A DNA stretch of 64,000 nucleotides from Eledone cirrhosa. Lineage: Eukaryota. The stretch spans positions 29,016,001 to 29,080,000 of the forward strand of contig OZ024760.1 of NCBI GenBank assembly GCA_964016885.1, in the 5' to 3' direction. The translations under genes and the position numbers were made by a program. The notes below the pieces were generated by a model, which saw only the letters and a list, made by a program, of their open reading frames with translations, made no database searches and was not told where the DNA came from. Positions 1 through 59,992 of the stretch are shown piece by piece; within the stretch, counting starts at the first letter, position 1, and each line of letters begins with the position of its first letter.

Positions 1-167
1 GACCGATACTTTGAGAGTTTACCCTCCTCATGCTCAAACACACACACTATCATATGTGTGTGTATATATATATATATATAAAAGTTTATCCCGGGTTCAA
101 TTGGGGGTAACCACAGTAAATAAGGTACTCAATACATAGCAGAGTATAAATATTTAATATAGAGATG

Positions 168-214
168 GCTTCTACAGGACTAGAGCTGTTTCATTTGGGA
201 GAAATCATCAGGAT
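168..214 (-). ncRNA. Type I hammerhead-like motif, 5' helix I truncated by (TA)n
   Basis: Minus strand reads aatc-CTGATGA-tttctcccaaat-GAAA-cag ctctagtc ctg-TA-gaagc. Core and helix III are present; helices I and II are weak. Confidence 0.55.
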
Positions 215-242
<28 letters not shown>

Positions 243-245
<3 letters not shown>

Positions 246-584
246 GGCACATGGCTTAGTGGTTAGAGCATTGGCCTTGCAATCGAAAGGTTGTGAGTTC
301 AATTCTCAGACTGGGTGATGTGTTGTTTCCTTGAGCAAGACACTTTATTTCACATTGCTCCAGTTTACTCAGCTGTAGAAATGAGATGATAGGGACTGGG
401 GTCCCTATCATTCCACTGCAAAGTGGTCGTGGAGGTGCCACGGGAAAAAAGCATCCAGCACTCACTGTAAATGAGGTTGGTGTTAGGAAGGGCATCCAGC
501 TGTAGAAATCAAGCCAGAATCAGTTCTCGTCCCACCCTTGCAAGCAGGGAGAAGCGGACGTAAAATGATGATGATGATGATGAT
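243..584 (+). mobile_element. tRNA-derived SINE with CORE-like body and RTE-type 3' tail
   Basis: A box TGGCTTAGTGG, B box GAGTTCAATTC, then ccttgagcaagacactt, then aggaagggcatccagctgtagaaa and a (GAT)n tail shared with the RTE 3' UTRs here. Near-identical copies at ~12995-13338(-), 18340-18725(+), 20912-21225(-), 32560-32865(-), 49490-49820(+). Confidence 0.85.
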
Positions 585-1054
585 ATTCAAAATAAATGTG
601 GAGAGTGCACAAGACAAAGATAATGGAAAAACAATGGAAAAACGGACAGCCCCCAACTTGTGGAAAGCTCTACGTGTTTGGTGTATTATTTCCAGAGGTT
701 AATTGAGGAAATGGGACTGTCTGTTTTTCAATTGTCTTTGTTCTGTATTTTGAATCCATATTCTAAAGACTTAGTGATGCAGGCTTTTTTGAAACTATAT
801 ATATCATCATCATCATCGTTTAACATCCATTTTCCACGATAGCATGGATATATCTCTCTATCTATCTATATATATATATATATATATGTGTATATATATG
901 CACACACACACTCAAATAGACGCACACATGCAGGCACATACACATACATGTGTGTGTCTATCTATATATACATATGCAAAAGGAGACAGTTTTTATTGAT
1001 GTTCCTTTCCAATTTTGAAACTGTTTTATGAATCAGAAATATATATGAATGGTA

Positions 1055-55800: not shown

Positions 55801-58445
55801 CGAAGGCTGCGTTGTTCGAAGCAAAATACATGCTCTGGGAAACGAGGGGACCAAAGCTGTTAGCTGGGCCCACGTGACAGAAGCGAAAAGTGGGATTAAA
55901 TCCACTATCCGGTCTTTGCGAGACCAGGATGGACGGGTGATCCTTGAACCTAAGCAAATGTGCGAGGCCTTTCAAAGGCACTTTGCCCAATTGTTCGGGA
56001 GGTGCAGGGGGCCGGTTGGAGATGTGGATTTCGGTCCATACCTCGACGGCCTGCCGCGTCTTTCGGACAAGGAGGCGAGGTCCTGCGACAGGCCGATCTC
56101 AGCTGCTGAAATAGGGGACGTGCTGAGCCTATGCGGCAAACGCAAATCTCCAGGGTTCGATGGTCTGCTCTACGAACTATATATTAATATGCCAGACTTG
56201 TTCCCCGATCTCCTCGAGGCGGTCTACTGCAACTGGCAACAGAACGGGAGAATTCCCTGTTCTGTGACCAAGGGCGTAGTCTCGCTAGTGAGGAAGGACG
56301 AGGACAAGGGGGATGACATTAGTAATTTTAGGCCCATAACTCTGCTAAATGCAGAGTTAAAGATTTTGGCCAAGGTGTTAGCGAAGAGGTTGGCGCTTGT
56401 CGTGGGGCCTGGTGGGAGATGCGCAGACATGCGCTATCCCGTCCAGGTCCATCCACGACAACCTCCACCTCATGCGATACATCATAGAGAGGGTTGGGAA
56501 CGAACCCGGCTTTGGTGGGGCCCTGATAAATTTAGATCAGTCGAAAGCGTTCGATAGGGTGGACCATGGTTACCTGGATGCGGTGCTAGCGGCGGCTGGG
56601 TTCGAACCCGTTTTCAGGGGCTGGATCACTGCCATGCACAGCAGCCGCATCTGCTCTAGAGTTAAGGTGAACGGCTACCTATCGGAGCCGTTCGAAATCA
56701 CCCGCTCCATCCGACAGGGATGCCCTCTCTCCTCCCTTCTGTATGTATTGGCTCTCGAGCCACTACTGCGGAAGTTGGAGTTGTTGCAGGGCATCCCTTT
56801 AGAACCGGGATTGCGCAAAGCGGTGTCGGCCTATGCCGATGACGTAACAGTAATGGTGTCGACCACCTCGGAAATCGAGGCAATCGGCACCTTACTGGAG
56901 GAGTACGAAAGGTTGACAGGGGCTAAGCTGAACCGGGACAAGTCAGTCGCTTTGCAACTCGGCGAGTGGAGGGGCAAAGCGATGTCGTGCGACGGTATCG
57001 TCAGACAGTGGACGGAGGGCCCGGTGAAGTTGCTTGGGGTCTGGTTCGGACCGGACCTCCAGGTGGAGAAAAACTGGGGTGAGGTGACGAATAGGGTGTT
57101 TGCACTGACCCAGAAGTGGGCCTGGGTGCAAACTATCCCTGAAAGGTTGGGCGGAGGTGGCGAACGCTTACATAGCGTCCGTCATCTATTACCGCTTGAC
57201 TGTCGTGCCTTGCCCGGGTGAGATCCTCGCCAAAATGGAATGGGCCCTCTTTTATTTCCTTTGGAAGAAGAGGTCTCCTCTGGTGAGGAGATCCATCTGC
57301 TGTCAACACCCTTTGAAAGGAGGGCTGGGGATGCCGTGGCTAAAAATGCGTTAACACGCATTGAGGCTAAGGCACATCCAGGTATTCCTCACCGGTCAAC
57401 CGGTGTGGGCCCCGTTTGTGAGGCGAGCCTTGCCGAGGCTCGTCTCGCTCACCGAGCTGCAGTCCTGGGTGAAGCAAAGACCGAGAAAACTGGGCGCCTG
57501 GCACACCGAGTGTGCCCAGGCGCTCACGGCTCTCTGGCAGGCGGACCCGGCTATCGACGGAGACTCCACCTCATCATTCTATAGAGGGCTGGTGGTTAGC
57601 AGGTGCGACGACGCCCTCGGAGAAACCCTAGGCATGGAGGAGGACGAACTGGCCAGTCTATTCGGTAGGACTTTTGGCCCGGGACCTATGGACAACTTCC
57701 AGAAGTCCTTGGCCTGGCAGTGCTACCGAGGGGCTCTGCCCGTTCGGGATAAGCTCTACAGACACGGGCGCCCGGGTAGGGACCCCTCGAAAAAGATCTG
57801 TCCCAGATGCATGCGCGACGAGGAAACGTCGCACATGCATTGGTGCACTGCCCGGGCGTTGCCGATCTGTGGGGCTATGTCGAACAACTACTGTCACGAG
57901 TGGGACCAATCAGGTTGACCACCAAGTCCATTGTAACGATCAAACCGCCTCCGCCCTTCAAAAATGAAGGAGAGGCAGTCTTCCTCTGTGTAATAGCCAT
58001 GGTAAAAGAGGCTATATGGTGGACGCGTCTGAAAGGGCTGAGTTTGGACACCTTTCTTTCTGGCCAACAACTGGTCCTTTTCTTCCGATACCATTTCGGA
58101 AGAAGGATCAGGATGGAGAGAGGTACTCCACCCCAGCCAGTTTTATGAAAGGTGGGTGAAAGTTGCGAGAATGGCCCGTGTGAATGGGCCTTCTCTTTAT
58201 ATCAGCCTGTAGGTGGAAAAGGATGAAGGAAGAAGGAAGCACCCTCTCTTTGTGCTCCCGTGGAGAAGGGTCGCACATTTTTTCGGGGGTGTGTGTGACC
58301 CCAAAACGATCCCTCCCTATTGAGGACCTTCTTGTTACTATTTTGTTTGTTATATTTTTCTTACTCGATTTTTATGTAAACTCCCCCCACCCATGTACAT
58401 GTCCCTTTCTTTTGTGCCCTAGTGGCAAATAAACAGAAATTTGTC
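52865..58445 (+). mobile_element. Near full-length Tx1/L1-clade LINE, frameshifted
   Basis: ORF1 53008-54657 (zinc-knuckle remnant CYHC...GNLRTAC, Thr-rich linker). ORF2 54778-58212: CLNARGL, AVYAP, GDWN, SYLDRF, SDH, GYWKLN, KSPGFDGL, FRPITLLN, LDQSKAFDRV, RQGCPLS, YADD, KLLGVWF, CPRC..EET..H..C. Several stops and frameshifts. Confidence 0.96.
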
Positions 58446-59168
58446 TGTCTGTATGTCAGGCTGTCTGTCTGTATGTCTGTCAGTCTGTCTGTATGTCAGC
58501 TTGTCTTCAGATTATCAGTTTGTCTGTCTGTAACATCTTCACTGACATAGGATGGTGATCAGTGATCGGTAGTGATCGGTAATGATTGGTGATCAATAAT
58601 GCTACTTAGAACAGTGAAAGAGAAGAGGATGGATCCCTATTATTTGGAAGTTAGTTCAGAGGTGAGGATGTGTGGGGTAGAGGTTGGGGTGGTGGTGGGG
58701 CGGCGTGGTGGTGGTGGTGTGTATGTATGTGTGTGTGTGTGTGTGTGTGTGAGGGGGGGGTAGTGAAGGTGGTGGTAGTGTAGCAGTAGGAATTACTGAA
58801 TGTTGCTAGTAGCACGGCAGATATAATATAATATGATATATAATATAATATATATTATAGAACATAGAATATAAGTCCCACCTCCAACTGTCTTAATTTG
58901 CCTCTACTGTTTCGTGTTAACCTACCACCACCACCACTACTACTACCACCTCTACCACCACCACCACCACCGCCACCGCAACCACTTCACTACCACCACT
59001 ACTACCACCACCACTACACTACCACCACTACCACCACCACTACCATCACTACTAACACCACTACACTACCACCACCACCACCACTACTACCACAACCAAT
59101 ACCATCACCACCACCGCCGCCACCACCACCACCATGTACACATGCTCTGAATCAACTTCATCATTATA

Positions 59169-59199
<31 letters not shown>

Positions 59200-59363
59200 C
59201 ATATATGTGTGTATACATATATATATAGATATATGTGTGTGTGTATATACATATATATATCTGTATGTATTTGACAGCCAAGAGAAAAGAGTACTCAATA
59301 CTGAAGCATATTTTAAATATTTATTAAGGCTAAATAAGTCTTATTACTCTAGAGTTTCCCTTG

Positions 59364-59405
<42 letters not shown>

Positions 59406-59992
59406 AGGAGGTGAGTTTTTGAAATGCGCATAATAAAACACATGGAACTCTTTTAACCATATTTTGATCTTATATTATATATATATATATATATATATCT
59501 ATGTATATATATATATATATATATCTATGTATATATATATATATATAGGAAAATATTTGACCCCGACGGCAGAGCTCAAGCCGTTTTGACGGCTATTTCA
59601 GAAATAGCCGTCGAAACGGCTTGAGCTCTGCCGTCGGGGTCAAACATTTTCCTATTACCCACTCTACTACCCTAAGTATTGAGTACTCTGGTGCGTTATG
59701 GTCAATCTGGTTCCTTACCACACCACCTTCATTATATATATATATATGAAAAGTGTAATTTACTACACAAAATGAAGGTTATAGAGAAAATTGAGGTTGG
59801 TAATGGCACATGGAATATATAAGAGACAGAATACTTTTTTGTGAAAAAACATATAATTTTATAAGGTAAGGAAATAATAAAGTGTATATATATATATAAC
59901 TGTTGTGTTACCACTTCTATCAAACTCGTCCCATGGACTGAGTGCTCTACCACTACGGATATTACCTTCCAGTGTTCTACCACTATATATAT

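Follow-up and report, generated by a model that had tools for sequence, protein, structure and literature searches.

The stretch studied here, a window of 64,000 nt from Eledone cirrhosa (assembly GCA_964016885.1, contig OZ024760.1, positions 29,016,001 to 29,080,000 of the forward strand), is AT-rich animal DNA, rich in microsatellites, short interspersed elements (SINEs) and remains of long interspersed elements (LINEs). It also harbours the ends of what are likely Penelope-like elements (PLEs), with type I hammerhead ribozymes in sense orientation. Both halves of the ribozyme core are found in the families B, F, G and D (the latter with one extra base) and only the 3' half in A and C, while the ribozyme of family E is known from loose ends of sequencing reads, which place its 3' half upstream in other copies of this family. 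The copies in the window, as well as most copies in a second, animal-like source of sequence described below, end in TA runs. In some copies the ribozyme is followed by a non-coding tail of about 60-95 nt, and a small predicted hairpin in this tail is the subject of this paper (coordinates in Table 1).

A preliminary description of the window had pointed to an exact 11-mer, here called the box, which recurs downstream of the ribozyme cut. All five copies are present as claimed, at 125-135(-), 19011-19021(+), 51883-51893(-), 59291-59301(-) and 59676-59686(+), each on the strand of the ribozyme (5/5); the chance level is a mean of 0.06 over 100 shuffles, none of which reached five. Copies with one mismatch are missing from the window, and with up to two mismatches 14 are observed where 35.8 are expected, which is rarer than chance. 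The first base of the box lies at +41 (19011, 59676), +43 (51893), +38 (135) and +44 (59301) after the NUH, and a variant box also exists, at 49382-49392 (+47 after the NUH) and 59935-59945. The families carrying the box had been regarded as unrelated. Three families do carry the exact box, but the families are diverged relatives (D and E are 89% identical over 27 nt around the box), and because the copies at 19011, 51883 and 59676 represent one family with a near-identical 75-nt tail, the independent count of the exact box is three. In total it stands on five of the 20 ribozyme arms inspected in the window. Both core halves are kept only by the copy at 125; the three copies of family A have a fold-back around loop II in place of the CUGANGA half, and the one at 59291 begins at GAAAC.

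Such an 11-mer could be without any function, left in related repeats by shared ancestry or by a coded peptide. Three of the five matches indeed belong to one family, the families share some flanking words, and one frame reads VLSTL or GLSAL in A-E. Nevertheless we hold this explanation to be most improbable. Between A, B and C the box is 100% identical whereas the ungapped flanks are only 23-40% identical, so that the surrounding bases are not equally conserved and simple homology is insufficient to explain the box, and the paired changes described below recur across distant animals. The coding explanation was rejected, as a stop lies just before the box in A, the peptide is missing in F and G, and the read variants show no codon phase (6, 5, 2). 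Compared by eye with the general consensi of splice sites and Pol III boxes, the box was rejected as either of these. Position 5 of the box is variable, with 9-29% of the read depth in the three covering runs, and the seven literature matches listed for the literal 11-mer are all unrelated.

According to the predicted folding, the 11-mer is the 3' strand of a small bulged hairpin. In the tails of A, D and E, ACUC is predicted to pair with GAGU of the box, followed by an upper stem and a bulge of 1-2 nt on the 3' side; folding gives only the lower stem in family B and neither stem in family C. When the strands are read off from their coordinates, the upper stem is UACU/AGUA in A, UGC/GUA in B, GUCC/GGAC in E and CAGU/ACUG in F. 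The hairpin can be described as RCUC, a stem of 3-7 bp, a loop, a bulge of 1-2 nt, GAGY and then RCU, with a size of 19-27 nt. The idea of a conserved cis-element holds in so far as the box is constrained while its flanks have diverged, but the conserved unit is the base-paired hairpin and not the 11-mer. A first descriptor gave six matches in the window, five in hairpin families and one in a SINE palindrome (0.29 in shuffles). The general strict descriptor also gave six, all of them in hairpin families (200 shuffles: mean 0.33, maximum 2), and it recovered family F (36267), which has no 11-mer and was not part of the descriptor building. This strict pattern is expected once per about 1,400-10,000 random 100-nt stretches. 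If one mismatch is allowed, 26 matches are found in the window versus about seven expected; the additional ones belong mostly to one SINE family, and two concern G and M.

A scan of a genome collection, which required the stem III letters and the two lower hairpin strands and neither an upper stem nor CUGANGA nor a TA run, yielded 56 loci. Nine of them form the hairpin, and the five with core plus hairpin, one of which carries an inverted endonuclease piece, all come from one record set, G001. This set (behind L256, L262, L265, L282 and L296) comprises 12 Mb and is filed as a bacterial metagenome-assembled genome. It reads like animal DNA, with TA runs, ribozyme patterns and Hydra-type reverse transcriptase (RT)/endonuclease open reading frames (ORFs), one of which is by eye almost identical to the coral consensus Hydra-2_Amil, and it is probably host DNA in a prokaryote collection. 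Ribozyme-pattern matches number 400 in G001 versus 267 for the control. The regions taken were the first 30 ribozyme-pattern matches, the first 30 hairpin-pattern matches and 25 endonuclease matches, plus 40 further regions picked by eye from the first 100 ribozyme-pattern listings or from hairpin-pattern matches. Eight of 58 distinct ribozyme sites have the strict hairpin and two a near form. Ribozyme families of the GAAACGUU/GUC type in G001 show no hairpin, and some of them may simply lack the tail. Within the first 30 hairpin-pattern matches, which were not selected by context, an element context (a ribozyme core upstream or a (TA)4 run downstream) is seen in 9/11 structured versus 2/19 unstructured matches (p = 0.0002).

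The element had been proposed as something to be sought in autonomous PLEs, and in G001 it does occur behind Hydra-type RT/endonuclease ORFs. A ribozyme lies within 750 nt downstream of 15 of the 20 endonuclease matches, in four cases together with the hairpin; the other ribozyme-bearing endonuclease loci mostly end short or are interrupted. Most of the ORFs examined are 5'-truncated. The GIY-YIG match has E = 3e-4, just under the Pfam cut-off, and the ORFs of L378 and L384 contain the CxCx5C linker (motif match), with no CCHH by eye. Rfam gave no match on five G001 loci at E up to 0.5, and in the window, at gathering level, only four tRNA-like matches, none of them at the hammerheads or hairpins.

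Comparing these sources, the pair at the base of the hairpin is A-U in five window families and G-C in ten G001 sites. Of 16 matches chosen by sequence alone behind a ribozyme or tail site, twelve are paired at each of the first three positions of the upper stem, with U-A, C-G, G-C, A-U and G.U all in use. When the 3' halves are shuffled among the 16 sites a mean of 3.1 are fully paired and none of 20,000 shuffles reaches 12, although these sites are related to each other and the shuffle counts overstate their independence. The pairs were counted by script; MAFFT left hairpins of different loop length unaligned. By sequence comparison, the upper stem changes freely while its pairing is kept through compensatory changes. 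The reads of four runs were compared with 59546-59986, and in 40 of the 94 rows of the variant list no variant falls on the 32 stem positions, while 24 fall on the 190 others (p = 0.019); two of these variants lie among the 12 positions of loop and bulge, and 22 among the remaining 178.

The box had been placed 38-44 nt downstream of the ribozyme cut. The constant reference is, however, the short insertion junction: counted from the cut the hairpin starts at +26 to +58 in the window and at +41 to +62 in G001, whereas in 12 out of 15 G001 comparisons the untailed copies diverge from the tailed ones 1-6 nt 5' of the hairpin. Of the three remaining comparisons, one meets the end of a locus and two involve interrupted copies. 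Within the window, short junction and hairpin are about 5 nt apart in A, about 4 nt in F1R and about 8 nt in G1R; the junctions of F2, G2 and G3 are blurred by TA-rich sequence. Because the spacing to the short (TA)n junction is fixed and that to the cut variable, the hairpin is assigned to the PLE 'tail', which is optional, and stands immediately 3' of the main insertion end. The long (tail) end follows 31-39 nt past the hairpin in 8/10 G001 copies and 33-65 nt past it in the window, and in most families the bases directly 5' of the hairpin are UA-rich. Tail-only insertions starting a few nt 5' of the hairpin are represented by E and M in the window and by L350, L359 and L364 in G001, and in each of the fold-backs A1, A3, F and G one arm is short and the other tailed.

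Raw reads under the same species label show a depth of about 12,000-15,000 on family A, about 3,700 on E and 40-130 on most spacer sequence. For family A, 2298 and 1644 loose read ends run into (TA)n at approximately cut+17 to +20 (short end) and 3313 mark the long end, with the box located in between. In a second organism (X4), which hardly holds the family A ribozyme at 80% likeness, both tails are kept and the depth is highest over the hairpins; in a third (run X13) there is no depth on either hairpin.

The variable distance to the cut, +26 to +62, also bears on the idea that the hairpin is an accessory of the hammerhead, either by GAGY swapping with stem III or by a palindromic GAG-NN-CUC driving the dimer that minimal hammerheads need. 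Several Hydra ribozymes and family C have indeed a stem III of the form ACUC..GAGU, and family C retains the box without its own 5' strand. However, stem III of family A is unrelated to the hairpin, and no co-variation with stem III is seen, as in G001 GCUC/GAGC stands beside ACUC/GAGU or ACAG/CUGU stems. Since, in addition, insertion of the anole element PAc in vitro is independent of ribozyme cleavage, according to the parts of PMC11167929 used here, we consider such an accessory role very unlikely.

Published elements, for which we draw on parts of the papers cited, link the hairpin to a known clade. Hydra-clade PLEs possess a hammerhead near the 3' end, insert at (TA)n and have a CxCx5C linker (Craig et al. 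2021, PMC8557442). Inspected by eye, three of the six new Hydra consensi of that study have the same hairpin. It is full, with GCUC/GAGC, in Hydra-2_Amil (+44) and Hydra-2_Ajap (+39), and the third, the complete consensus Hydra-1_Ajap, has a short 3' end and two hairpin copies at its 5' start before the ATG. Of the others, Hydra-1_Crog has a form with a U.U mismatch (+48) and a related stem at its 5' start, and Hydra-1_Amil a weak one. In the Naiad/Chlamys consensi, used as control, the hairpin is found by eye in none of the 28 places shown with 3'-strand words (28 of 56 occurrences). The window families thus have hairpin, hammerhead and (TA)n in common with the Hydra clade, but the window copies are without ORF. 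The word hairpin does not occur in the main text of PMC8557442, whose relevant passages name only ribozyme and SECIS (selenocysteine insertion sequence) structures.

The position of the hairpin in Hydra-1_Ajap, together with the 5' stem of Hydra-1_Crog, could also indicate a control element in the 5' untranslated region (UTR) of the next tandem unit, acting in the initiation of transcription, in 3'-end formation or in a translational feedback exerted by the protein of the element; that it lies close to the junction would then only reflect the start of the unit. PLE tails are in fact the start of the following tandem unit (Arkhipova et al. 2013, PMC3846280). Against this role, which we think unlikely, the compensatory changes argue if a double-stranded promoter motif is meant, the tail-only insertions listed above are easier to obtain via retrotransposition, and the unit start is itself defined by the junction.

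A close experimental counterpart is PAc. Its genomic ends are two internal RT starts with the tail between them, and RNA located 3' of the RT starts is required, the needed region being bounded only to about 150 nt (Frangieh et al. 2024, PMC11167929). Common to both systems are an optional tail on one arm of an inverted structure, two 3' ends and needed RNA 3' of the starts. The PAc tail, however, is 30-40 nt long and coding, and RT starts inside an AC-rich stem-loop, whereas here the tail is about 60-95 nt long, non-coding and contains a cross-phylum structure; no such hairpin is seen by eye in the PAc segment of the PMC11167929 supplement. With the minimal type I hammerheads of metazoan PLEs (Cervera and de la Pena 2014, PMC4209133) the window ribozymes share the extra base after CUGANGA, a short palindromic stem III, many families per genome and inverted pairs. 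That paper, in the parts considered, covers the ribozyme and describes no downstream element.

Taken together, we lean towards the hairpin being an RNA docking site which positions the internal initiation of PLE reverse transcription. From the four roles proposed earlier for the box (RT recognition, priming, transcription, 3' processing), RT recognition or priming seems to fit the sequences best. The RT/GIY-YIG protein would bind the hairpin, the nicked (TA)n target would pair with the UA-rich patch 5' of it and copying would begin there, so that most insertions would leave the hairpin uncopied. A second start further 3' would give rise to tailed and tail-only copies, and the use of both starts in one event to fold-backs with one short and one tailed arm. 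Small structures near the priming site are known from LINEs and SINEs, where 3' stem-loops (eel UnaL2, the R2 3' UTR) are proposed to recruit and position the RT and are copied into every insertion. The hairpin described here differs from them, as it lies 3' of the main junction and is missing from short-ended copies. Telomerase RNA has template-positioning elements, and Penelope-like RTs are the closest retroelement relatives of telomerase. By analogy, and more tentatively, Hydra-clade PLEs might carry a pan-animal RNA anchor 3' of the priming site, which would position the RT on the UA patch in a telomerase-RNA-like manner.

Several observations weigh against this interpretation, in addition to the relatedness of the 16 sites. 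The octopus consensus Hydra-1_Obim has no hairpin by eye. The hairpin-bearing copies of the window have no attached coding sequence and blastn of the window versus the G001 loci finds no similarity, therefore the clade of the window families is inferred; likely they are ends of Hydra-clade PLEs, and the only Hydra-type endonuclease remnant of the window (13941-14154, tblastn E = 1e-4), which indicates that the clade is present in the genome, is unlinked to them. The folding z-scores of whole tails are ordinary (-0.9 to +0.9). Family C has the exact box and lacks the 5' strand of the lower stem, G and M have each a lower-stem mismatch, and D has an A.C in the upper stem. In G001 the bare sequence pattern is not enriched (256 versus 329 for the reversed control). 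The 24 nt 5' of the loop are likewise without listed variant in the reads. Finally, the model leaves open what fixes the second end.

Furthermore, the opposite strand folds about equally well, so that RNA is not proven over single-stranded DNA. The hairpin might then act as single-stranded cDNA or as a cruciform, with a cut by the GIY-YIG endonuclease setting the short end during resolution of an intermediate. This would agree with the fact that nearly all pairs are Watson-Crick pairs, and the fixed junction distance suits a cut as well as an RT start. In D. virilis the Penelope tail is reported to be required for endonuclease recognition (PMC11167929), and tails have been ascribed to endonuclease-mediated resolution (PMC8557442). 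On the other hand, the few G.U/G.T pairs (in B, M and the G001 family of L256) are on the ribozyme strand, and the ends of PAc coincide with measured RT starts (PMC11167929). We therefore regard an action as DNA as improbable and prefer docking of the RT on RNA.

The hairpin bears on how Penelope-like RTs choose their RNA and start internally. It offers a structure of 19-27 nt whose natural compensatory changes give the exact mutations to test, and its spacing from the junction is constant in sequences from octopus-like animals, coral, sea cucumber and other animals. It can also serve as a marker to assign short non-coding remnants to their autonomous partner. If the RNA anchor is real, it would account for the internal initiation of copying, for the tail being optional and for fold-backs with a single tail, and mobilisation in trans would be open to any RNA with the hairpin. 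Ribozymes, tails and (TA)n targeting of PLEs are already known. A description of the structured tail hairpin was found neither in Rfam nor in the part of the literature consulted (that is, outside subscription papers, Repbase notes, figures and bioRxiv supplements).

Table 1. Copies of the hairpin-bearing families and related remnants in the window (positions within the 64,000 nt; a dot, no single strand).
Feature	Position	Strand	Remarks
Family B, truncated PLE 3' end	82..214	-	hammerhead core with both halves; cut after 173; flanked on either side by (TA)n
Family B hairpin	127..145	-	upper stem of 3 bp, one of them G.U; UU bulge; box 125-135 consists of the 3' strand and 2 further nt
C-terminus of Hydra-type endonuclease with 3' UTR and decayed ribozyme	13941..14326	+	ends short at (TA)n, no tail
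Family A copy 1	18849..19067	+	folded back around loop II; short left arm (cut+17 to +20) and tailed right arm
Family A copy 1 hairpin	18996..19019	+	4+4 bp, 6-nt loop, bulge UU; box 19011-19021
Family G fold-back	26346..26773	.	tail on minus-strand arm; hairpin 26411-26430 with one C.A in lower stem
Family G short copies	near 39764 and 50814		
Family F fold-back	36185..36578	.	complete ribozyme per arm; tail only on minus-strand arm
Family F hairpin	36243-36267	-	different upper stem, bulge UA, no 11-mer
Family F short copy	59415-59475		
Family M, tail-like insertion between (TA)n runs	39517..39588	+	candidate hairpin 39534-39553, A.A at base; no ribozyme seen
Family M further arms	38889-38966 and 39004-39057		
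Family D	49296..49433	+	ribozyme with one extra core base; cut after 49335; variant box 49382-49392
Family D hairpin	49371-49390	+	1-nt bulge; one A.C in common register
Family A copy 2	51837..51990	-	cut after 51936; hairpin 51885-51908; box 51883-51893
Family E 5' piece	51999-52034		adjoins family A copy 2
Family C, ribozyme 3' half	59260..59363	-	cut after 59345; exact box 59291-59301
Family C hairpin region	in 59260..59363		upper stem possible; 5' strand of lower stem missing
Family A copy 3	59548..59733	+	fold-back; cut after 59635; short end 59652-59655; long end 59733
Family A copy 3 hairpin	59661..59684	+	box 59676-59686; of the listed read variants only 59673 (loop) and 59680 (bulge) fall here
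Family E, tail inserted alone between (TA)n runs	59897..59984	+	hairpin 59924-59943

The fold-backs of family A (18849-18987, 51936-51990, 59548-59652) are all centred on loop II of the ribozyme, which fits self-priming of the cDNA on stem II. A remnant at 45820-45868 resembles the 3' part of family C (86% over 36 nt) with the box region rearranged or deleted, and at 59403-59419 the 3' half of the family F ribozyme adjoins 17 nt from the end of the F tail in inverted orientation. Five further ribozyme families of the window (H, I, J, K and L) show no hairpin; some of them may simply lack the tail. A PLE of another type has left remains of RT/endonuclease and a ribozyme at 15560-16690 (-) and 44820-45100 (+), with no hairpin within 150 nt of the cut; the best protein match of its RT remnant is a hypothetical protein from Octopus vulgaris (65%).

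Scans of other collections gave mainly negative results. Only chance matches were obtained from viral sequences: 27 loci were read from a first search, none of 11 loci from another was flagged by the stem/core filter, and among 104 loci from a third two have hairpins, but the combination of core and hairpin is absent. In the metagenome data, where 10 of 64 parts were scanned and 112 loci obtained, no element with ribozyme plus box came to light. In 343 kb of these loci the strict descriptor matches twice, without a ribozyme core in the 70 nt upstream, and a protein search for near length found nothing. A metagenome repeat family of 20 loci (including L052, L064 and L082) is AT-rich, up to about 550 nt long and has a stem of 9 bp and a TA run in its interior, beyond which the repeat goes on; neither a ribozyme nor an ORF was seen in it.

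Other long fold-backs flanked by TA runs are located in the window at 45111-45776, 10056-10353, 35750-35959 and 8089-8203; in the first of them both arms bear a ribozyme and stop at the same point. The remaining repeats include a 72-nt tandem array (40777-43105), a decayed LINE with endonuclease and RT frames (54733-58148) and many tRNA-derived SINEs (250-586 and copies).

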